Shown here piece after piece: positions 2,855-53,541 of a stretch of 64,000 nucleotides of DNA. The DNA comes from Vulcanimicrobiota bacterium (GTDB taxonomy: Bacteria; Vulcanimicrobiota; Xenobia; Xenobiales; JADMJV01). The DNA is taken from contig JBFWNU010000006.1 in NCBI GenBank assembly GCA_050250895.1, positions 55,513 through 119,512 of the forward strand. Reading direction: 5' to 3'. The notes under the pieces were generated by a model. That model did not search any database, was not told where the DNA came from, and saw nothing but the letters and a program-made list of their open reading frames with translations. Both the position numbers and the translations under genes were made by a program. Positions within the stretch are counted from its first letter, which is position 1. Each line of letters opens with the position of its first letter.

Positions 2855-3818
2855 CCCGAATCTCGTCAAGGCTGTCGGCCCGCACCAATCGATCCCGCAC
2901 GTGACTCTGGCCGGGCGCATCCAGCCGATAGCGAGAGAGCTGGCCACGCATCTCGCGCAGGGCCACCTGCGGGGGTAGGGGGGTGGTCTCTAGCGTCAGT
3001 TCGGCCTGCCGCAGGGCCAGGCGCGCTCGCTCGGCCAGTCCGGGTTCGGCCGGCTCGGGACCCGTCAAGCCCGCGAGCAGATGGCCGAACACCCAGGGGC
3101 GACCTAGAGCGGCCCGCCCGATCATCACCCCGTCGCAGCCCGTCTGCTCGAACATCTGGCGCAGCTCGGCGGCGCTGGTGACATCCCCGTTGCCGATCAC
3201 GGGGATGCTCTCGACGGCCTGCTTGACTCGGGTGATGACGCTCCAGTCGGCCTGGCCGGTGAAGCCTTGCTCGGCGGTGCGGGCGTGAACGGTGACGCCG
3301 GCTACACCAAGCTTTTCGGCGGCCACGGCGAAGTCGACGGCCGTGTCCTTGCCTTCGTGCCAGCCGCTGCGGACCTTCACGGTCACGGGCACGGCCACCG
3401 CCTGGACCACCGCCTCGACCACGGCCGAAGCCACCTCGAGGTCCCGTAGCAGGGCAGCTCCGCCACCCTTTTTGGCCACCTTCGGGACCCAGCAACCCAT
3501 GTTGATGTCGACGATATCGGCGCCGTGGTCGACCACGATGCGGGCCGCCTGGGCCATGACCCCGGGGTCGCTGCCGAAGAGCTGCACCGCCAGCGGGCTC
3601 TCCTGGGGCGACCAGTCGAACAGTTCCATGGTGCGCTGGCGGGTGCCGTTGTGATCGAGGGCGTTGCTCGAGATCAGCTCGGTGCAGACCAATCCGCAGG
3701 CTCCCAACTCGCGGCACAAGCGACGAAAAGCATGGTGCGTCTGGCCGGCCATCGGGGCCAGCAGCAAGGCCGGATCGATCTTGATCGAACCGATATAGAA
3801 TGGGCTTGGAGGGCTCAC
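2817..3818 (-). CDS. dusB: tRNA-dihydrouridine synthase DusB
   Basis: LAPMAG, QLFG, DINMGC, VKVRSG, HARTA, GNGDV, GVMIGR motifs. Confidence 0.9.
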   Translation of the reverse strand: MSPPSPFYIGSIKIDPALLLAPMAGQTHHAFRRLCRELGACGLVCTELISSNALDHNGTRQRTMELFDWSPQESPLAVQLFGSDPGVMAQAARIVVDHGADIVDINMGCWVPKVAKKGGGAALLRDLEVASAVVEAVVQAVAVPVTVKVRSGWHEGKDTAVDFAVAAEKLGVAGVTVHARTAEQGFTGQADWSVITRVKQAVESIPVIGNGDVTSAAELRQMFEQTGCDGVMIGRAALGRPWVFGHLLAGLTGPEPAEPGLAERARLALRQAELTLETTPLPPQVALREMRGQLSRYRLDAPGQSHVRDRLVRADSLDEIRAILEPLMLGVRA

Positions 3819-3886
3819 GCTGGCCTCATTCTATCACCCGGGGCAAGGCGCAGGTCAGACTAACCCTCCGGCGAAGCACCCCTGAC

Positions 3887-5749
3887 ATGGATGTACCCGC
3901 ACGCTCGGCTCAGAGGCTCGAAGAACTCAAGCTGCGAGCCCAGGAGGCACCCAAAGAGTCCGAACTGGCCGTCTCGTTGGGCGAAGCCTACCTGCGCGAG
4001 GGCCTGGTCGAAGAGGCAGCTACCCAGTATGCCCGCTCGACCAAGCTAGACCCGCGCACCGAACTCAAGTCTCTCTACTGGGAATGGCTGGGCCTGGTGC
4101 GCGAGTCGCGGGGCGAACTCGAGGCGGCTCTAGACGCCTACTTTCAGTGGCTCGAGACCGACCCGGCCTCGGTCGAGCCGCTCGACCGCCTGGGCACGCT
4201 GCTGGTAACCTTGCAGCGCTGGACTGACGTGGTGTTGCTCAAGCCCCACTACCGCACCCGGGTCCAGTTACTGGACGAGCCCCGGGTGGCCGAGTCGATG
4301 GCTCTCTACTCTTTCGTGCTCGAGCAGTTGGGAACCCCGCTCGAGAACTCTCCCCTCGAGCTGACCTATGCGGCCCTCGAGCGCGAGTCCGAGAGTATCG
4401 CTATGCGCTACCTGCTGGGCATCCAGTTCTATCGTTCCGGCCATCTCGAGGGGGCCCGCAACGAGTTCGAGCGGGTGCTCGAACTCGATGTCCAGCAGAC
4501 CTGGGTAGAGCGGCGCTTTTCGTTGATGTGGGACGCGGCCACAGCTCGGATCATGCTGGCCCGCATCGCTCGCCTTCAGGGTTATCCCCAAGAAGCACTG
4601 GCCCGTCTCTCCGAGTCGTTCTCGCTGCATGACGAAAGCTCCGAGGGGTTGCTCGAAGTGGCTTCGGTCATGCTGGACTTCGGCCACTATGCCGAGCTCC
4701 TGGCGATTTTGCCCACCGGAGCCTCCACCGCCCTCAACCTGGATCGATTTCGCTCGGAGTGTTATCTGGGCCTGGGTCAGATCGAGCTGGCCGAGGCCGG
4801 CTACCGGCTGGTCGCTCCCGAGGCCGAAGCCGCCACCCCTGCGCCGGATGAACTCACGAAGAGTCAGCAGAACGCTCTCGAGAAGGCCGACTCGCTTTTG
4901 GCCAAAGGCGATTACAAGGGAGTGATCGATCGGCTCCGGCGGGTGGGTAGTCGCAAGCGGCCGATCTGGCAAGCGCTCGAGTATAAAGCTAAAGCCTATG
5001 TGAAACTCGAGGACTGGAACCGCGCCATCAAAGAACTCGAGCGGCTGGTCGAGCTCAGGCCTGACTCGACGCTTGCCTGGGATTTGCTCTCCTTAGCCTA
5101 CTTGAGGACCGATCAGAGGTTGCGCCACCGGTTGGCCGGGCTGCAGCGAGAGAAGCTCTCTTCCCGAAGGGTCCCCGAGGTGGGCCTGGTCTGGCCTGCC
5201 GTCGAGTCTCGCAACCTGGCCGGATTGGTCCTTCAGGCCCGCGCGCTGCCAGGCAAAGGCCGGCTCGTCGTGACCGGCGATTTGCAGGGCCGCATTCGCG
5301 AGTATGCCGAGTTAGCCCTGACGGTGCTGCGCACCGAGTTCGAATCCATCGGGGTCGAAGACCCGGCCTATCGAGATCTGCATCTGCACGCTCGCGCCGT
5401 CTGGCTAGAACGAGGGCCGGCGGACGAGCCCGAGGTGACCGAAGACGCCGGAGCAGCCATCCTCGCAAGCCTCGGCAGCGCCCTGGCGGGGCGCTTTCCC
5501 GACGAGATTTCGGTGGTGGCCGGGCGTCTCGACCTGGCCGGAACGCTACGCGGCCCGCTGGCCCTCGAAGAAGGTCTGTCCCGGTTGTCGGCGGCCGGCC
5601 TGAGCTGGTCTTCGATCCTCTTGCCTCGAGCCTGCGCTCCCGAACTCTTGCGACTGCCGCCCAGCCTGGGGGTAGGCTGCCGGCTCTACCTTTGTGATAG
5701 CGCCCAGGAACTGATCGGCGCGCTGCTCTATCCCGAGGAAGCCCTATGA
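3887..5749 (+). CDS. TPR-repeat protein fused to a C-terminal Lon (S16) protease-like domain lacking the catalytic Ser/Lys
   Basis: Multiple TPR-like helices; C-terminus PGKGRLVVTGDL...ALTVLR...RDLHLH...EDAG...AGRLDLAG...LEEG aligns to Lon PGKGKLTYTGSL...ALTVVR...RDIHVH...PSAG...TGEITLRG...LKEK. Confidence 0.8.
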   Translation: MDVPARSAQRLEELKLRAQEAPKESELAVSLGEAYLREGLVEEAATQYARSTKLDPRTELKSLYWEWLGLVRESRGELEAALDAYFQWLETDPASVEPLDRLGTLLVTLQRWTDVVLLKPHYRTRVQLLDEPRVAESMALYSFVLEQLGTPLENSPLELTYAALERESESIAMRYLLGIQFYRSGHLEGARNEFERVLELDVQQTWVERRFSLMWDAATARIMLARIARLQGYPQEALARLSESFSLHDESSEGLLEVASVMLDFGHYAELLAILPTGASTALNLDRFRSECYLGLGQIELAEAGYRLVAPEAEAATPAPDELTKSQQNALEKADSLLAKGDYKGVIDRLRRVGSRKRPIWQALEYKAKAYVKLEDWNRAIKELERLVELRPDSTLAWDLLSLAYLRTDQRLRHRLAGLQREKLSSRRVPEVGLVWPAVESRNLAGLVLQARALPGKGRLVVTGDLQGRIREYAELALTVLRTEFESIGVEDPAYRDLHLHARAVWLERGPADEPEVTEDAGAAILASLGSALAGRFPDEISVVAGRLDLAGTLRGPLALEEGLSRLSAAGLSWSSILLPRACAPELLRLPPSLGVGCRLYLCDSAQELIGALLYPEEAL

Positions 5750-7185
5750 CCCAAGCCCAGGACTTACTCAATGCTCTGGCTCTGGCCCGCAAAGAGTCGC
5801 AATATTTTGGTCATGCGTTCTTGTGCACCGAGCATCTGTTGCTGGGCTTGATGGCCAGCGAAACCACTCCGGCTGCTCGTTTCTTGATTCGGCGAGGGAT
5901 GGAGATCGAGCGTCTGCGCCAGGCACTGGTCGAGCATGTCGGCCGGGGAGAACAGCCCCTGGACGACGACCCGCCCCCCAGCCTGCGGACCCTGGGCATC
6001 TTGAGGCTGGCCGAGGACATGGCGCGAACCTACGGCCGTTCCTGCGACACGCTCATCTTGCTGTGGGCGCTGCTGCAAGACCGCGATAGCGATGCGGCTC
6101 AGCTCTTGATGAGCGAGGGAGTCGACCTGGTGTCCTGGACCGCCGCCCTGGAAGAGCTGATGGGCGAACCCACCCGGCGGCGCCCGCGGGTGTTTTCTGG
6201 GGGTGGAGAAAGGCCCGCCGGGCAAGTGGCCGAGATGCGGCGTTGGCGCGAGCGGCTGCTGGGCGCCCCCGCTTTTCTTAACGACCGCATGGTGGGTCAA
6301 AGCGACGCCATCGAGCGAGTGTCCGCCATCATCACGCGCAGTTGGGCCGGTCTGGCCGGCGCCGGGCGACCCCTGGCCAGCTTTCTCTTTGCCGGGCCCG
6401 GCGGCAGCGGTAAGACGACCCTGGCCCGCAACCTGGCCGAGTTGCTCTATCAGGATCCCGAGCGGATGATCCGCTTCAACATGGACGAGTTCAACGACGA
6501 GGCTAGCGCCTGGCGCTTGACCGGCCATCGAGGGGCCCGTCCCGAAGAGCAGGAAGGCATTCTCACCCAGGTGGCCAGCGAGTATCCGTATTCGGTGCTG
6601 TATCTCGAAGACATCGATCGGGCCCACCCCCGCGCCCTGGATATCATTGCCCAGGTGCTCACCCGCGGCCACGTCACCGACGGCGCGGGTAAACGAGTCG
6701 AGTTTCGCGACCACGTGGTCGTGCTGTCGGTCACGGTCGAGGCCGATTTCATGGCCATGGAAGTGCCGGTGGGCTTTCGCCAGTCTTCGCTTCGGCCCAC
6801 CGGAATCCAGAAGATTGAAAAGAGCTTACTACCCGAGTTCGAACGGGCTCTCGGGGGCGAGCTGGTCGAGGCGGTGGACGAACTGGTGTTTTTGCCGCCA
6901 CTGGGCAAGAACGAGCTACGCGAGTTGTTGCAGAAGTGGACGGAATCCCTCACCAACAAGCTGCGCCAACGGCGCGGAATCGAGGTGGATGTGGACTCGA
7001 AAGTGCTCGACTATTTGCTCGAGCAGGTGCAGGACCGCGGCGCCGAGGACCTGCGGCGGGCTTATGTGCGCCAGGTCGAAAACCTGATCGCCCACAAGAT
7101 GCTGGAGGGTCTCTACACCGAAGACTCGTCGATCAAGGTCGAAATGGGGGAGGGGACCCCGCAGGTCTCGATTCTAGGAGTCTGA
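5746..7185 (+). CDS. ClpA/ClpC-like protein: Clp N-domain plus a single degenerate second AAA+ module
   Basis: GHAFLCTEHLLLGL Clp-N repeat; VGQSDAI, RPLASFLFAGPGGSGKT, PYSVLYLEDIDRAHP, TDGAGKRVEF; no D1 or M domain; ATGA overlap with upstream gene. Confidence 0.85.
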   Translation: MTQAQDLLNALALARKESQYFGHAFLCTEHLLLGLMASETTPAARFLIRRGMEIERLRQALVEHVGRGEQPLDDDPPPSLRTLGILRLAEDMARTYGRSCDTLILLWALLQDRDSDAAQLLMSEGVDLVSWTAALEELMGEPTRRRPRVFSGGGERPAGQVAEMRRWRERLLGAPAFLNDRMVGQSDAIERVSAIITRSWAGLAGAGRPLASFLFAGPGGSGKTTLARNLAELLYQDPERMIRFNMDEFNDEASAWRLTGHRGARPEEQEGILTQVASEYPYSVLYLEDIDRAHPRALDIIAQVLTRGHVTDGAGKRVEFRDHVVVLSVTVEADFMAMEVPVGFRQSSLRPTGIQKIEKSLLPEFERALGGELVEAVDELVFLPPLGKNELRELLQKWTESLTNKLRQRRGIEVDVDSKVLDYLLEQVQDRGAEDLRRAYVRQVENLIAHKMLEGLYTEDSSIKVEMGEGTPQVSILGV

Positions 7186-7413
7186 CTTCTTCTCACCCTC
7201 GTTGAGCAGGCTCAGCACGCTGGGCAGCTTGATCTTGCCGGAGTCGACCATCTTGCAAAAGGCGGCCGCCACCGAAAAGCCCACCGTAACGGCCAGGCCG
7301 GCTTTGCCCAGGGCTTCGAAGGTGTCACCCAGGACCTGCCAATCCTGGGAAGGGTCGTGGCGCACTACTGCTTGCTCGGGTTGACGAGTGATTTGTTGTT
7401 CTTGGCTAGTCAC
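7174..7413 (-). CDS. Small hypothetical protein with one hydrophobic segment
   Basis: 79-aa ORF directly downstream of and co-oriented with the NHL gene; fills an otherwise empty gap. Confidence 0.5.
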   Translation of the reverse strand: MTSQEQQITRQPEQAVVRHDPSQDWQVLGDTFEALGKAGLAVTVGFSVAAAFCKMVDSGKIKLPSVLSLLNEGEKKSDS

Positions 7414-7432
7414 AGAGCCAGAAATTCAAGAA

Positions 7433-8440
7433 TTATTTGTCTGTATCCTCTTCTTCGGGCGGCTGCGGCGGCGGGACAGGACACCAAACGAAGACCGACG
7501 TGGGGTTGCGCAGCTGGCTGTCGGGGTCGTCGGTAGAGGAGAAGACCAGCAGTTCGCGCGGGCGGAAGGCGTCATAACGAATCAACCGATCGTTGCCCGA
7601 GTCGGCCACGAAGAGGTGTCCTTCCTCGTCAATAGCCAGGCCTTGCGGTCTTTGCAACTGAGTCGCATCCACCCCGTAGCCGCCCTCTTCGCGAACTCCT
7701 TTGCCATCGATATCTTGAATGGTGATCAGGCGATGGAACGAGCCGTCGACGAAATAGATCTGGCGGCGTTCGGTGACCACCTGACCGGGGGCCACGCTGG
7801 CGGTGCGCAAACCCTGGCCGCGATAGACGTGGACATAGAAGACATCCTCGCTTTGACGAATGTGAATCACCTTGCCGCCCGGCGGGTCTTCGCCGCAAGT
7901 GGCATAGAGGTCGCCGCGAAAATCCAGCCACAACTGGTGCGGCTGGGTCATCTCGGGATGCTTGATGGTGAACAACAACTTGCCGTCCCATTTGTCATAG
8001 AGCAGGATCTGGTCGTTGTCGGTGTCGGCGATATAGACGTTGTCGCCTTTTACGCAGACACCCCCGGGATGGTTGAAGCCCCCCATTTCGACCCAGCCGC
8101 GCCCGGTCATCTCATCGACCCGGACCACCCGATTGTTGCCGGTGTCGGCGATGTAGATACGACCCTGCTCATCAACCCAGACTTGCCCGGGTTCGAGAAA
8201 TCGGCCCAATCCGAAACCGGCATAGCCCAGGGCGGTGAACCCTTTGCCGGTCATGTCTTCCATGTAGACAATGCGGCCGTTGCCGGTGTCAGAGAGCCAG
8301 ATGCCGGGGGGCCGAACCTTTTGTTCTTCGGCGGGCTTGTCTTTGAGCTTCGCCTTCTTCTTTTGGGCCTGGGCGCTGGGCGTCAGCGCCACCATTGCGA
8401 CTACTAACAGAAGGCTTACCAGGATATGGAGGCGTTTCAT
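7433..8440 (-). CDS. Secreted NHL-repeat (beta-propeller) protein
   Basis: Signal peptide (AQA); repeated [11 protein letters not shown] / VYIADTDND / PQGLAID...FVADSGNDR. Confidence 0.85.
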
Positions 8441-8496
8441 GGCTGGCAGGGTTCCAGCAGGTGGGAAAGAAGACCTCCCGCCCCAGGGAGGTTTGT

Positions 8497-9510
8497 ATGA
8501 GCGTATTAGATCGACTGCATCGGCGCGCCCAGTCGGAACCCAAGCGGATTCTGCTGCCCGAGAGCCAGGATGACCGGACCCTGCGGGCGGCTCGCTTGAT
8601 CGAAGACGCCAAACTAGCCGAAGCCGTGTTGCTCGGCGAGCCGACCGCTTTGCGCCAGCGAGCCGCGCGGTTAGGCTTTTCCATCGATGACGTGGAGATC
8701 ATCGACCCGGCCAAGCATCCCAAACGCGATGAATACGTCGATGCCTATTTCAAGCTGCGCCGGCACAAGGGCATGACCGAAAGCGAAGCCGAGCAGACCA
8801 TGCAAGATCGCCTCTATTTTGGCAACATGATGGTCCGCAATGGTGACGCCGACGGCACCGTGGCCGGAGCCACCAACACCACCGCCCACACCGTGCGGGC
8901 CGCTCTCCATTGTCTGGGCCTACTGCCTGGAATTCGCACCGTCTCGAGCTTCTTCGTGATGGTCTCGCCCGACCCAAGTTTTGGCGAGAATGGCTCGATG
9001 CTGTTCGCGGACTGCGGCGTGGTCATCGATCCCAACCCCGAGCAATTGGCCGAGATCGCCGCCTGCACCGCCGAATCGTGCCGGGCTTTTCTCGAGGCCG
9101 AACCCCGCGTGGCCATGCTCAGCTTCTCGACCAAAGGCAGCGCTCAGCACGCGCTGGTCGACAAAGTCGTCAAGGCTACCGAGACCCTCAAAGCGCGCCA
9201 TCCTAACCTGCTCGTCGATGGCGAACTGCAACTCGACGCGGCCCTGATTCCCAGCGTGGGCGAGAAGAAGTCGCCGGGCTCCCCGGTGGCCGGCCGGGCT
9301 AACGTCTTGATCTTCCCCGACCTGCAGTCGGGCAACATCGGTTACAAGCTGACCGAGCGCCTCGGCAAAGCCACGGCCGTAGGCCCGATCCTGCAAGGCC
9401 TCGAGCGGCCTTCCAACGACCTCTCGCGGGGTTGCAAGGCCGAGGACATCGCCGACGCCGTAGCCATTACGGCCATTCAGGCTCAGCAACGGACCCCTAG
9501 CCGAACTTGA
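8497..9510 (+). CDS. pta: Phosphate acetyltransferase
   Basis: GGAGG RBS; [55 protein letters not shown]. Confidence 0.95.
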
Positions 9511-11057
9511 AGCCCGGGGTAGCCACCGCTGGCGTCACCGGGGTCTTGCTGGCGGCCGGGCTGGTTTTGCACCTGGCGGGTCAGACGGTGCATTGGCCCA
9601 GCTTCTTCTTCATGGTCGCTTTCTACGCGGCCGTGGTCTTCATCGGTGCCTGGGCCGGCAGTCGCGAAAACTCGGGTTCCTACGAAGAGATGATGTTGGC
9701 CGGACGGTGCATGCCTTTGTGGCTGGGCGTATTCACCATGAGCGCCACCTGGGTGGGCGGTGGCTACATCAACGGCACGGCCGAATACACCGCCTCGCAA
9801 GGCCTGGCCTGGGTGCAGGCTCCCTGGGGCTACGCGCTCAGCCTGGTGTTGGGAGGAGTCTTTTTCGCTCGCAAGATGCGCTCGGCCGGCCACACCACCC
9901 TGCTCGATCCTTTGGCTGCCAAGTACGGCGAGAAGGTGGCGGCGAGCCTCTATCTGGTGGCGCTTTCCGGCGAACTGTTCTGGACGGGCGCGATTCTAGC
10001 TGCCCTGGGCACCACCTTCGGGGTCATTCTTGGCATCAACTTCACGGCCGCTATCATCCTGTCGGCCCTGGTGGCTGTCTTCTATACCGCCCTGGGAGGC
10101 CTGTGGGCCGTGGCCGGCACCGATGTGCTCCAATTGATCATTTTGCTGTTCGGGCTGTGGCTGGTCATTCCGTTCGCGGCCGAGCCAACCGGCGGAATGG
10201 CGGCCGCCTGGAGTGCCTACCAGCTAAAGATGGGAGCGCTGGCCTCGTTCGGGCCTGACCCGGCCTGGGGAGATCTCTACTGGACCTGGTGGGATTATGC
10301 CCTGCTGCTGGTGCTGGGCGGCATCCCCTGGCAGGTCTACTTCCAGCGGGTGCTGGCTTCACGCGATGACCGCTCGGCCATAGGTTTGTCGGTGGTGGCC
10401 GGCGGAGTCTGTCTGCTGGCCGCAGCCCCCGCCGTGGCCATCGGCGTCATCGGCGCCGTGGTTGACTGGAGCTCGCTGGGACTGGCCGGGCCCTCTGAGG
10501 CCGCGCTCACCTTGCCCTACGTCATGCGCCATCTGTTGCCCACGCCGCTGGCCGCCATCGGCCTGGGTGCTCTGGCTGCGGCCGTCATGTCTTCGGTCGA
10601 CTCGTCCATCCTCTCGGCCTCGTCCATGGCCGCCTGGAACGTCTATCGGCCCTTGATCAATCCCAAGGCCGATAGCCATGAGCTGGGCCGGGTGGTGCGC
10701 TGGTCGGTGTGGGGGGTGGGCCTGCTGGCCACCATCCTGGCCCTGACCGTGAAAAGCGTCTATGCCCTCTGGTTCTTGTGCAGCGACTTCGTCTACTGCA
10801 TCTTGTTCCCGCAGCTGGTCACCGCCCTCTTTGATCCCAAGGCCAACCGCACCGGCTCGCTGGCCGGGCTGGCCGTCTCGTTCGTGCTACGCTTCGGCGG
10901 CGGTGACGCCACCCTGGGATTGCCGGTGTTGCTTCCCTATCCGATGATGGATCCCGAGCAAGGCCTGCTGTTCCCCTTCCGCACCCTCTCCATGGTCTGC
11001 GGGCTAATCACCATCATGATCGTCTCCCGCCTAAGAAAACTACCGTCTACCGTCTGA
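9507..11057 (+). CDS. Sodium:solute symporter, high-affinity choline transporter (SLC5A7)-like
   Basis: Polytopic membrane protein; [52 protein letters not shown]; TTGA overlap with pta. Confidence 0.85.
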
Positions 11058-11069
11058 CGACTACCGTCT
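11040..11069. repeat. 30-bp heptamer-phased element (CTACCGT)n, copy 1
   Basis: ctaccgt ctaccgt ctgacga ctaccgt ct; reverse complement matches 20091-20120 at 27/30. Confidence 0.7.
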
Positions 11070-13185
11070 ATCGCTCGGGATCGAACCAGTCGACTTCCCC
11101 CGTGCCTAACCAGCCCTCTTGATCCTCTTCGGGCTCGGGGGCGGTGTTGGTGGTCGGAGGTAAGCCGGCCGTGGGTGGCGGAGGAGCCGCCTCGACGGCG
11201 GGAGCCTGCCATTCGTCGGGCACGCCGCCGAGCACCGGTTCGGCGGTCGCAGGACCGGCCAGCGTCGGCTCGTCGGGTTCGGGCAGGTCGGTGGGGCCGA
11301 GCTTTTCGCGCAATTCTTTGATGCGATTGCGGATGGTTGGGGTGGCCAGGTTCAGGGGGTCGAGCACCACGAAACGCTGATACATCTCGAGGGCTCGGGC
11401 CAGATCGCCCTGCTTCTCGGCCACGATGCCGAGACCGCGCACGGCGATCGAGTCCATGAAGTCATAGTTGAGCGCATTAGAGAACGCCTGTTCGCCGGCG
11501 GACGTGTTGCCGAGCAGGGTGTGGCACTCGCCCAGCAGGCTCCACAGGGCCGAGGCGGCCGGCGCACAACCGGTTTGATGTTGAGCCGAGCGGCGTACCT
11601 CTTCGGCCAGTTTGATGGCCTCGTCTTTGCGACCCAGGCGGATCAATAGCTTCACTTTGCGGAACTGCTGGTGGATCGAGTCGGGATAAGCCTGGCAGAT
11701 CTCTTCCATGGTCTGCAGGGCGTCCTCGATCTGGTTCTCACGCATCTGGGCGGTGGCCAGAGCGACGGCCAGGTTGGAGTGAACTTCTTCGGTGGCGTAG
11801 GTACAGCGCAGACCCTGGCGGCTGGCTTCGGCGGCTTCGGCCCACTGTTCGCGGCGCACCCAGTATTCGGCCGCACCCAGGTGACTGCGCGCATCGCGGG
11901 GCGCCTGTTTGACCGAGCGCAGATACAGTTCTTCGGCCGTTTCGAGTTCGTCGACAGCCTCATAGATTGGGGCGATCATGCGCAAATTGGCCTCGGGGTC
12001 GCGCTGATAGATCTCGAGCGACTCGCGAAAGCGTCCCGTCTTGAAATAGAGGTCGGCCAGGGAGCGCTCGATGGCGCGCCGCACCGACTTTTTCTCGTTG
12101 GGGTCCGAAATGATGTCGTTGTAATAGTCGATAGCTTCCTGGCTGCGGCCCATGCGAACATAAAGGCGGCCCAGTTCCCACAGGGCCTGGGCGTTGCGAG
12201 AATCCGACACCAGGGCTGACTTGAGGGTCTCGATGGCGTCTTCGAAGTAGCCGGCCTGAATCTGCTGCTTGGCCAGTATGGTCCAGCCGCGCGAGTCGCC
12301 GCGGTATTCGCGCAGATACTCGACGAGTTCGGTGATGAAGGCCTCGTTGAGGGTTTGCCACTGGGACTGCAAGCCGGCTCCAGCGTAGACCCGCAACAGT
12401 TCGACCTTCCACTCGCGCGAGTTGCGGTGGTTGGTGTTGGTCTCGATGGCTCGCTCGTAGAAACCTTTGGCCGCGTCGAGGTCTTTGACCCGGTAAGACA
12501 GGCGAGCGGCGGCTTCGAGCAAGCTGCCGCTGCGGTCTTGATAGCTGAGGGCTTTGGCCAGCAAGCGCAGGCCCATATGCTGAAGTTTGATGCGGCTCTC
12601 GGTATCGAGGCCCTTGCCCAGCATCTCTTCGTAGAAGGTTCCGCCCAGGGGAGACTCGTCGCCCTTCTTCAGGTCGATGAGCTTGGAATACGACTGTTCG
12701 GCCGTCTGGAAGGCCCCGGCGCGCACGGCCGTGGCGGCCAACCGGCGAATGGTATCGGGGTCGTCGGGCTCGAATTGCGTGACCCAGCGGCGCCACTCGA
12801 GGGCTTTCTCGTATTTGCCCTCTTCTTCGAGCGCCTCGGCCAACTTCACCCCGAAAAACGGGTCGCGGCACTCGCGGGCGGCGGTCTGGAGGGCGGCTCG
12901 CATATTGGAGCGGTCGCCCATCTTGCGCAAAACCTTGAATTTTCGAACGTGGGCGTCTTTGTTGGTGGGGTCTTCGGCCAGTTTGGCCTCGGCCTCTTCT
13001 AAGGCGCCTTCGAGGTCTTCATCGGCGATGTCGCCGAGCATGGGCTTGAGATCATCGTCGCGCTTGGCGGCGTGTTTGTTGGTTGGCTGGTCCTTGCGGA
13101 GCAGTCCTCGGGCGTCATCCCCAGTCTTTTCCTTACCCTTCGTCGGGAACTGGGGCTTTTGGCCAGAACCGAACTTGCGCTTCAT
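11068..13185 (-). CDS. Large TPR-repeat protein with Pro/Glu-rich tail
   Basis: AAGGAG RBS; many TPR motifs (e.g. ALWELGRLYVRMGRSQEAIDYY); acidic tail ending WLGTGEVDWFDPER. Confidence 0.85.
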   Translation of the reverse strand: MKRKFGSGQKPQFPTKGKEKTGDDARGLLRKDQPTNKHAAKRDDDLKPMLGDIADEDLEGALEEAEAKLAEDPTNKDAHVRKFKVLRKMGDRSNMRAALQTAARECRDPFFGVKLAEALEEEGKYEKALEWRRWVTQFEPDDPDTIRRLAATAVRAGAFQTAEQSYSKLIDLKKGDESPLGGTFYEEMLGKGLDTESRIKLQHMGLRLLAKALSYQDRSGSLLEAAARLSYRVKDLDAAKGFYERAIETNTNHRNSREWKVELLRVYAGAGLQSQWQTLNEAFITELVEYLREYRGDSRGWTILAKQQIQAGYFEDAIETLKSALVSDSRNAQALWELGRLYVRMGRSQEAIDYYNDIISDPNEKKSVRRAIERSLADLYFKTGRFRESLEIYQRDPEANLRMIAPIYEAVDELETAEELYLRSVKQAPRDARSHLGAAEYWVRREQWAEAAEASRQGLRCTYATEEVHSNLAVALATAQMRENQIEDALQTMEEICQAYPDSIHQQFRKVKLLIRLGRKDEAIKLAEEVRRSAQHQTGCAPAASALWSLLGECHTLLGNTSAGEQAFSNALNYDFMDSIAVRGLGIVAEKQGDLARALEMYQRFVVLDPLNLATPTIRNRIKELREKLGPTDLPEPDEPTLAGPATAEPVLGGVPDEWQAPAVEAAPPPPTAGLPPTTNTAPEPEEDQEGWLGTGEVDWFDPER

Positions 13186-53250: not shown

Positions 53251-53541
53251 ATGACTTTGACCTTGCCTAACCTCGATGAGCTGCTTAAGACCATCGATAA
53301 AGCCGAGCCTCAGCGCTCTTGGAAAGTGTTGCTCTATAACGACAACCGCAATCGGTTTGATGACGTGGTGCTGTGGATTCAGAAAGCCACCGGTTGCTCT
53401 CACGAGTGCGCCAGCGTGATCACCAAAACCGCCCACGAGAACGGCCGCGCTGTTTGCTTCGAGGGTGAACGCGAAAAGTGCCGCCAGGTAGCCGGTTATC
53501 TACGCAATCGAGGCTTGCAGGTCGAAGTCGACGACTATTGA
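53251..53541 (+). CDS. clpS: ATP-dependent Clp protease adaptor ClpS
   Basis: AGGAG RBS; WKVLLYNDNRNRFDDVV...AHENGRAVC. Confidence 0.85.
   Translation: MTLTLPNLDELLKTIDKAEPQRSWKVLLYNDNRNRFDDVVLWIQKATGCSHECASVITKTAHENGRAVCFEGEREKCRQVAGYLRNRGLQVEVDDY

Follow-up and report, generated by a model that had tools for sequence, protein, structure and literature searches.

A co-inherited pair of Lon- and ClpC-derived pseudo-enzymes in Xenobiales-type bacteria, a candidate accessory of ClpP/ClpC proteolysis

Introduction

Bacterial AAA+ proteases are assembled from recurrent parts, and several of these parts are also found in catalytically inactive form. ClpA, ClpC and ClpX dock on ClpP through an [ILV]GF-type loop, and such loops are normally presented to ClpP by a Clp ATPase hexamer. 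ClpR is a dead ClpP subunit, ClpT and mycobacterial ClpC2 consist of the Clp N-domain only, and all three accompany Clp machines. A Lon-P-like fold without catalytic residues likewise serves as a structural or oligomerization module in RadA/Sms and ComM, where it is fused to DNA-dependent ATPases that act in recombination or transformation. Skd3 (human CLPB), by contrast with these inactive proteins, has its motor residues intact, is active as a disaggregase and is not known to carry a ClpP loop. Here, we describe a pair of genes at positions 3887-7185 of a 64,000-nt stretch of DNA from a Vulcanimicrobiota bacterium (assembly GCA_050250895.1, contig JBFWNU010000006.1, positions 55,513-119,512, forward strand; hereafter the window, to whose positions all coordinates refer). 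Gene 1 encodes an array of tetratricopeptide repeats (TPRs) that ends in a Lon protease fold lacking the catalytic dyad, and gene 2 encodes a pseudo-ClpC made of a Clp N-domain and one degenerate D2 module. We show that the two are real, conserved and selected pseudo-enzymes specific to one lineage, and we tentatively propose that they form a non-catalytic complex acting as an accessory of ClpP/ClpC proteolysis.

Results

Two abutting, co-directional genes

The listing of open reading frames (ORFs) gives two co-directional ORFs at this locus, 3800..5749 (+, 649 aa) and 5746..7185 (+, 479 aa). We prefer a start at 3887 for gene 1, since the column of the relatives' first methionine in the family alignment (A1) is nearly invariant; this gives a protein of 620 aa (3887..5749, +, including the stop). 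At 5746-5749 the sequence reads ATGA, in which the ATG that opens gene 2 overlaps the TGA that closes gene 1, and a Shine-Dalgarno-like GAGGAAG lies at 5735-5741, 5 nt upstream of the gene 2 ATG, so that ribosome-binding-like site and overlap together make up a compact junction (5735..5749, +). The genes abut in all 20 related loci that we fetched, with a gap of -4 to +49 nt. Both frames are uninterrupted in the window and intact in 21 of the 21 loci examined, and the Pfam domain scores of both products are far above chance. The ATGA overlap and the full-length, uninterrupted ORFs described in the original prediction, which was made from the window sequence alone, are thus both confirmed. The arrangement is best explained as an operon with translational coupling. 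A promoter and terminator scan of 3600-7600 returned no promoter-like and two terminator-like sites, with no excess over shuffled sequences, and Rfam and tRNA scans of the window gave no match.

Gene 1 joins a TPR array to a Lon fold without its catalytic dyad

The original prediction described gene 1 as a long TPR array followed by a Lon protease fold, and Pfam and Foldseek searches both support this architecture. Many TPR families match above their cut-offs (TPR_2 with an expectation value, E, of 3.8e-14), the strongest single matches falling at residues 362-409, and Lon_C matches residues 433-614 with an E of 2e-10 and 41 bits against a cut-off of 21.1. The tail also aligns with the LonA protease domains of solved structures at E 1e-11. 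In an AlphaFold2 (AF2) model built on the family alignment, with a predicted local distance difference test score (pLDDT) of 84.2, paired TPR helices run through residue 427, and the Lon-fold domain makes up the remainder of the chain (residues 428-620; 5168..5746, +). Foldseek superposes this tail on the P domains of E. coli Lon with template modeling (TM) scores of 0.72-0.76 by target and a root-mean-square deviation of 3.6 at TM 0.76, and matches the TPR part to the superhelices of OGT, SPY and CTPR; a search of the ESM Atlas with gene 1 returned generic TPR clusters only, with scores of 0.82-0.83. The AAA+ module is absent from the chain, residues 1-427 being TPR helices, and the match to NCBIfam Endopeptidase La reaches 27.7 bits against a cut-off of 891.

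Loss of the Lon Ser-Lys dyad, a further part of the prediction, is equally clear. In alignments to Lon structures and to the LonA encoded by the same genome, Asp520 (5444..5446, +) occupies the position of the catalytic Ser and Glu561 (5567..5569, +) that of the catalytic Lys. To count residues column by column, we used 21 family members, the window and 20 further loci, aligned with LonA (gene 1) or the D2 of ClpC (gene 2) from the window's own genome. The Lys column holds Lys in none of the 21, and the Ser column holds Asp in 11, Glu in three, Asn in two, and Val, Ser, Ala, Thr and His in one each; the single relative with an aligned Ser lacks the Lys. An exhaustive search of 1.84 billion representatives with a profile of the dead Lon domain returned 17 proteins at E < 1e-30 and about 27 down to 1e-21, nearly all of them of 544-792 aa and carrying the domain C-terminally (four shorter ones are presumably fragments), and from about E 1e-15 ordinary Lon proteases dominate the matches. 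Among the best 24 library representatives of the domain none has the Lys, one has the Ser by alignment, and none has both. This profile search supersedes a word-based homologue search with the Lon region, which had found four proteins only.

The best-conserved part of gene 1 is its N-terminal TPR block (residues 1-240; 3887..4606, +), not the Lon fold. Mean pairwise identity in this block is 48%, with 66 of 240 columns conserved at 80% or more, and it holds most of the invariant columns of alignment A1. The C-terminal TPR block (residues 241-427; 4607..5167, +) is variable, with 26% mean pairwise identity and a low-confidence loop at residues 308-320, and the Lon domain has a mean identity of 32%, with 24 of 193 columns at or above the 80% level and three invariant columns. 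In one genus (g3, loci L013-L016), the former Ser loop of the dead Lon domain is extended by an insertion of about 12 residues, and the branch of the domain is very long (1.89 changes per column), with gene 2 much less diverged there.

Gene 2 is a degenerate ClpC relative that keeps a ClpP-docking-type loop

Gene 2 (5746..7185, +, 479 aa, including the stop) had been described as a Clp N-domain joined to the D2 module of ClpC only, and both Pfam and alignment to B. subtilis ClpC agree. The N-domain (residues 1-140; 5746..6165, +) matches Clp_N in two repeats (E 6.5e-15), both of them still recognizable, and aligns with ClpC/ClpC1 N-domain structures at about E 1e-13; 32 of its 140 columns are conserved at 80% or more. 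AAA_2 occurs once, at residues 208-365 (E 1.9e-26), with ClpB_D2-small at 386-465 (E 5.6e-8), and by Pfam and structure alignments alike the D1 module and M-domain are absent. The best alignment to a solved structure is with B. subtilis ClpC, pairing residues 157-470 with residues 487-799, its D2, at E 4e-56; the D2 fold of gene 2 is complete, at about 310 residues. With the AF2 model of gene 2, also built on the family alignment (pLDDT 85.3), Foldseek returned ClpC chains and the second nucleotide-binding domain (NBD2) of T. thermophilus ClpB, at TM 0.87-0.89 by target for the isolated NBD2.

The further claim that gene 2 has lost its catalytic residues holds for Walker B, Arg finger, sensor 2 and pore loop; it does not hold for Walker A, which is canonical in the window (GPGGSGKT; 6394..6417, +). 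Across the family this motif is degenerate, too: GK[ST] is present in nine of 36 gene 2 family sequences, the Lys is replaced by Arg in five of 36, and the Walker A Thr is retained in four of the 21 sequences counted by column. Walker B reads VLYLED (6595..6612, +), with the canonical DE inverted to ED. Its Asp column holds Glu in 20 sequences and Asp in one, its catalytic Glu column holds Asp in 13, Ser in four and Gly in four, and the canonical D-E pair occurs in 0 of 36 family sequences. The D2 pore loop, which aligns to GAPPGYVGFEEGG of ClpC from the same genome, survives as a remnant that has lost its aromatic residue (6523..6558, +): the GYVG of ClpC corresponds to a shortened GARP stretch in the window, none of the 21 sequences has the pore Tyr, and 11 have a gap at that column. 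At the former Arg finger (ELVEAVDE; 6859..6882, +) the window has Ala and the column holds Leu in 14 sequences, Lys in four, Gln in two and Ala in one. At sensor 2 (GAEDLRR; 7039..7059, +) the window has Glu, and the column holds Gly in 11, Asp in four, Ser and Thr in two each, and Glu and Ala in one each; Arg is missing from all 21 sequences in both columns. Judged by the residues that each has lost, both proteins are pseudo-enzymes, as had been proposed.

A single motor-linked element of gene 2 is retained family-wide, the ClpP-docking-type loop, whereas none of the 21 sequences has the pore Tyr, the Arg finger, the sensor-2 Arg or the Walker B Glu. The loop reads PVGFRQ (residues 341-346; 6766..6783, +), stands at the same alignment position as NIGFRQ in ClpC from the same genome, and aligns with the VGF of B. 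subtilis ClpC. All 21 sequences of the column-count set have [VLM]-G-[FL]-R here; in the set of 36, G343 and R345 do not vary, with Phe in 32, Leu in three and Ile in one at the Phe position. The loop is flexible in the model, with pLDDT <50 at residues 340-352.

Between N-domain and D2 lies a conserved basic motif, EPTRRRPRVF (residues 141-150; 6166..6195, +), which is predicted to be disordered (pLDDT <50 at linker residues 141-155), has R146 and P147 nearly invariant, and may serve as a binding motif. We considered the acidic former active site of gene 1 as its partner, and set this aside as an idea only, the co-variation between lineages not being clean. In loci L028-L031 (genera g8 and g9), gene 2 has an extra C-terminal tail of 40-60 residues rich in Arg, Lys, Pro and Ala, which is absent from the window protein.

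No annotated family with a known function was found to cover the pair. Against NCBIfam equivalogs, gene 2 scores 211 bits for ClpB (cut-off 1232) and 172 for ClpA (cut-off 993), all matches being far below cut-off, and in source databases its relatives are named only 'AAA family ATPase' or ClpA/ClpC.

The two genes are inherited together within one order

We followed both families through a close set, made up of the window's own genome and 40 relatives, and a phylum sample of 251 genomes. The expectation that the genes would be co-conserved in relatives was borne out: both occur in the same 34 of the 41 genomes of the close set and neither in the other seven, and in 33 of the 34 carriers they lie on the same contig and strand with gene 1 first. 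The exception (G011) is a genome 75% complete in 730 contigs, in which the pair is split over two small contigs and only the first 307 residues of gene 1 were recovered. Six of the seven non-carriers belong to genus g2, in the same family, and the seventh to a different family of the class; in all seven, gene 1 matches TPR stretches only (E 1e-5 to 1e-8) and gene 2 matches full-length Hsp100 proteins only (about E 1e-42). In the phylum sample gene 2 is found in 34 genomes and the dead Lon domain in 33, with G011 making the difference. All carriers belong to one order (families f1, f2 and f3), and neither gene was found in four other genomes of the class or in the remaining 207 genomes of the sample. 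The pair is present as one copy per genome and is retained at 25-74% identity across the order, in which genome size ranges from 1.9 to 9.5 Mb; the small-genome genus g5 (2.2-2.9 Mb) has it in 10 of 10 genomes.

The gene 2 family is sharply bounded, with 48 clusters of 43-100% identity and 450-528 aa, the next matches being ordinary ClpC-type proteins at about 32%. Its members come from Candidatus Eremiobacterota, Candidatus Xenobium and 'Armatimonadetes' metagenome-assembled genomes (MAGs), and NCBI taxonomy places Candidatus Xenobium in the class Xenobia, order Xenobiales. Four family loci from a genome collection bear titles that include 'bacterium UBP9_UBA6111' and MAGs labelled as gut and rumen samples. 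One family member (P0049) is filed under the alga Phaeothamnion confervicola as an 'unnamed protein product', and is most likely bacterial DNA within that assembly.

Trees of gene 1 and gene 2 show the same well-supported clades and follow the taxonomic families. In an unrooted tree that included five Hsp100 paralogues from the window's own genome and 12 of about 70 canonical ClpC-type matches, the gene 2 family is monophyletic (support 100/100) and set apart from these by a long stem (1.06 and 1.35 changes per column). An attempt to place the family beside ClpC or beside ClpB gave no resolution, the tree being unrooted and the stem long.

Purifying selection and rate covariation

We estimated the ratio of nonsynonymous to synonymous divergence (dN/dS, omega) by the Nei-Gojobori method on 17 locus pairs, and used the seven pairs with dS <0.8 for both genes, the others being saturated or undefined. 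Taken over whole genes, omega ranges from 0.02 to 0.21 in gene 1 and from 0.04 to 0.23 in gene 2. Values are similarly low by domain: 0.00-0.12 for the N-terminal TPR block, 0.02-0.21 for the dead Lon domain, 0.00-0.13 for the large subdomain of the degenerate D2, and 0.00-0.10 for the gene 2 linker. Every domain of both genes, the dead domains included, is under purifying selection; these are constrained proteins, not decaying paralogues. Neutral dN/dS, which the original prediction had named as evidence of decay, is contradicted by the whole-gene range of 0.02-0.23.

The pair keeps company with other genes, most often an NHL-repeat gene (16 of 21 loci), Pta (15 of 21) and a gene for a TPR protein of 705 aa (13 of 21). 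In families f1 and f2 the layout is G1+ G2+ NHL- Pta+ (G1 and G2 being genes 1 and 2), and in family f3 it is TPR705+ Pta- NHL+ G1+ G2+. Relative to the NHL-Pta-TPR block, the two genes have thus been flipped together between families, with their internal order and tight junction unchanged. In genus g2 the pair is absent from all six genomes, both genes together, and at the three g2 sites that we fetched the NHL-Pta-TPR705 block is intact, with no remnant of the pair by tblastn at E up to 5. Protein distances covary as well: for pairwise distances among 15 loci, the correlation between genes 1 and 2 is 0.96, and the partial correlation given Pta is 0.91, as against control partial correlations with the NHL neighbour of 0.23 and 0.36 for the same loci. 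We treat this covariation as an indication and not as a formal test, the locus pairs being non-independent. Taken together, inversion as a unit, remnant-free loss in g2 and covariation of distances go beyond synteny.

Genome context

The pair keeps the block of secreted NHL-repeat protein, Pta and 705-aa TPR protein beside it across the order (loci L013-L031), and in the window this block occupies 7433-13185; in family f2 the 705-aa TPR gene lies directly upstream of gene 1. We considered the NHL neighbour as a third partner and rejected it: its signal-peptide-like N-terminus means that it is not counted as a cytosolic partner, and it shows no rate covariation once Pta is factored out. In the window, the downstream neighbours are the NHL protein, Pta, a symporter and a PASTA kinase, and upstream, on the other strand, lie a Dus gene and an HtrA-type protease. 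The latter, an HtrA/DegP-type serine protease with two PDZ domains (937-2424, -), is two genes upstream of the pair, and this adjacency is not conserved in other families.

Elsewhere, the genome encodes two ClpP genes, a canonical ClpC, a canonical LonA and three ClpS homologues; a search of it for MecA found none. One stand-alone ClpS homologue of 96 aa is in the window (53251-53541, +), about 46 kb downstream of the pair, with no ClpA-type gene following on the same strand. The genome is also rich in Lon-like proteins: besides LonA (C6:502629), three ORFs of 698-765 aa match Lon_C above cut-off, and two shorter ORFs match more weakly. These were found by Pfam family search; tblastn with the Lon region of gene 1 finds only itself in this genome.

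Discussion

An accessory of ClpP/ClpC proteolysis?

The gene pair described here is, as a fact of its sequence, distribution and selection, a set of two conserved pseudo-enzymes specific to one lineage, and it would be the first case in which parts of two different AAA+ proteases, both dead, are inherited as a unit. Its role is probably to regulate protein degradation or to serve as a scaffold for it, with no catalysis of its own. Our leading, though tentative, proposal is that the two proteins make up a non-catalytic complex that acts as an accessory of ClpP/ClpC proteolysis. In this proposal, gene 2 is a ClpC descendant that would have lost ATP hydrolysis and substrate threading, while keeping a ClpC-type N-domain and the [VLM]GFR loop with which Clp ATPases dock on ClpP. 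The TPR array of gene 1 would offer a long binding surface, which may capture substrates as the original prediction has it, and its dead Lon domain would most likely serve as a ring or oligomer scaffold, a platform that may be needed for the single degenerate D2 ring to assemble. By occupying ClpP, or by competing with ClpC and ClpX for it, the complex might alter access to the peptidase, whether as a cap or competitor, as an ATP-free gate opener or as a delivery platform, outcomes among which sequence cannot discriminate. We infer mutual binding of the two proteins, binding of gene 2 to ClpP, and the direction of any effect from sequence comparison.

What points towards ClpP is the docking loop. 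Docking of the pseudo-ClpC on ClpP is the most economical reading because this loop is the one motor-linked element visibly constrained and has nearly the sequence of the resident ClpC, and it lends indirect support to the original prediction of a pseudo-Clp acting on ClpP. The presumed targets, two ClpP proteins and a canonical ClpC, are encoded in the genome, which lacks MecA. Purifying selection on every domain, the coupling and rate covariation of the two genes, and retention of the pair in the small genomes of genus g5 also speak for a joint function of this kind. A more specific version, in which a Lon-domain hexamer carried on TPR arms would template a ring of pseudo-ClpC whose VGF loops open or plug the ClpP gate, making the pair an ATP-free ClpP regulator, strikes us as improbable in its full detail.

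Several points weigh against an accessory of ClpP/ClpC. The docking loop could have been re-used for another receptor, for which a six-fold ring of gene 1 is a candidate, and, its P-loop being degenerate, a lone D2 ring may be unable to hexamerize by itself. Neither the ClpP nor the ClpC genes are near the pair in the window. The neighbourhood is partly syntenic across the order, so plain adjacency of the two genes is weaker evidence than it might seem, and the genomes compared are related and non-independent, so that the correlation and the counts overstate their support.

Alternative explanations

The alternative that fares best keeps the docking loop at work within the pair itself. The D2 ring of gene 2 would stack on a hexameric ring of dead Lon domains, with the VGF loops docking on gene 1, and the whole would be a pseudo-Lon split over two chains, acting independently of ClpP as an ATP-independent holdase or assembly scaffold. 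Such a layout, an AAA+ ring on a protease ring, would copy LonA: between them the two proteins supply the binding domain, AAA+ fold and Lon P fold of a Lon-like machine, and the two rings would share six-fold symmetry. The strong rate covariation of the two genes fits, and a structure entry titled 'Hexameric structure of a LonA protease domain' suggests that isolated Lon P domains form hexameric rings in crystals. We nevertheless regard this as possible rather than likely, since a loop almost identical to that of the resident ClpC is more easily explained by an unchanged receptor, ClpP, and since the Lon domain ranks low in conservation within gene 1 (mean identity 32%, three invariant columns).

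An unlikely alternative makes ClpC the object of regulation, and not ClpP. Gene 2 might mix into ClpC hexamers, or soak up adaptors or tagged substrates, with gene 1 as its adaptor. Actinobacteria offer a precedent in ClpC decoys that consist of the N-domain only, gene 2 still has a Clp_N domain with two recognizable repeats and 32 of 140 well-conserved columns, and the lack of MecA in the genome makes another ClpC partner plausible. A pure N-domain decoy, however, needs no constrained D2, still less a conserved ClpP-type loop, and the long branch that separates gene 2 from canonical D2 modules (stems of 1.06 and 1.35 changes per column) argues against interfaces that are still compatible with ClpC.

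The pair might also be a structural scaffold unrelated to proteolysis that re-uses TPR, Lon P and AAA+ folds. Dead Lon-like rings do act as scaffolds in the DNA-repair proteins RadA and ComM, the look-alikes of the TPR array are generic and give no functional hint, and no conserved neighbour points to proteolysis. We find this distinctly doubtful, as it leaves the conserved ClpP-type loop and the Clp N-domain of gene 2 unexplained.

A role in anti-phage defence, for example as a relative of the Lon-like BrxL, is very improbable. PADLOC does return weak matches, to BrxL at E 6.1e-6 (Lon region only) and to PDC-M37B at E 1.7e-7 (P-loop region), but these are domain-level only and a full-length BrxL match was not obtained; moreover, the pair is a single-copy element at a conserved chromosomal site, its gene trees follow families, and its neighbours are housekeeping genes (HtrA, Dus, NHL protein, Pta, symporter) with no BREX genes among them. 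Finally, the idea of functionless pseudogenes, paralogues in decay, would account for the loss of catalytic residues in both genes but is contradicted by the selection and conservation data, with frames intact in 21 of 21 loci, omega of 0.02-0.23, and retention at 25-74% identity across an order that includes genomes of 2.2-2.9 Mb, and is hardly tenable.

Significance

The conserved ClpP-docking loop of gene 2 is a direct and cheap experimental handle on the accessory role that we propose. If the pair does gate or cap ClpP without ATP, it would represent a new mode of control for a protease that is a major drug target, and a ring that opens or plugs the gate, made wholly of pieces from two different AAA+ proteases, would be to ClpP, as a protein, what ATP-independent proteasome activators are to the proteasome, or would parallel gate openers of the acyldepsipeptide type. 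The pair would then also illustrate how pseudo-enzymes originate from core proteostasis machines. It is in addition a lineage marker for Xenobiales-type bacteria, including small-genome members from gut and rumen.

Comparison with known systems

A full-text search of open-access papers and preprints found no description of a dead-Lon plus dead-ClpC pair, in agreement with the original prediction, which did not recognize the pairing as a described system; in the text available from one such paper (PMC11484240), clp is mentioned for Patescibacteria only. Gene 2 resembles ClpC of B. subtilis and S. aureus in its Clp N-domain, its D2 large and small folds, and the position of its [ILV]GF-type loop. 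ClpC differs in having both D1 and D2, an M-domain, a catalytic D2 and an aromatic pore loop; Walker A is degenerate in 27 of 36 gene 2 family sequences. Skd3 (human CLPB), which is among both the sequence and the fold matches of gene 2, shares the single ClpB-D2-like module and has a non-Clp N-terminal domain; gene 2, unlike Skd3, is degenerate and keeps a ClpP-type loop.

Gene 1 shares the fold of its tail with the P domain of LonA (MEROPS S16). LonA, however, has the Ser-Lys dyad, an AAA+ module and a Lon N-domain, in place of which gene 1 has a 427-residue TPR array. From the Lon-like domains of RadA and ComM, in turn, the Lon fold of gene 1 differs in its fusion to TPR repeats and in having a Clp-derived protein as its partner gene product.

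Inactive parts of protease machines that accompany or regulate the Clp protease are a shared principle of ClpR, ClpT, ClpC2 and the plastid iLON proteins. The N-domain-only decoys of the ClpC2/ClpT type differ from gene 2, which carries a complete D2 fold. The plastid iLON/LON-like proteins, according to the portion of the published account available to us (PMC8889267), were trapped with CLPC1 and carry the Lon N-terminal domain, not the P domain. In none of these four is an inactive Lon P domain combined with an inactive one-ring ClpC. While the principle of dead protease parts beside a Clp machine is already known, the combination of a Lon P domain with a single-ring ClpC, as found in this pair, appears to be new to the open-access literature searched.

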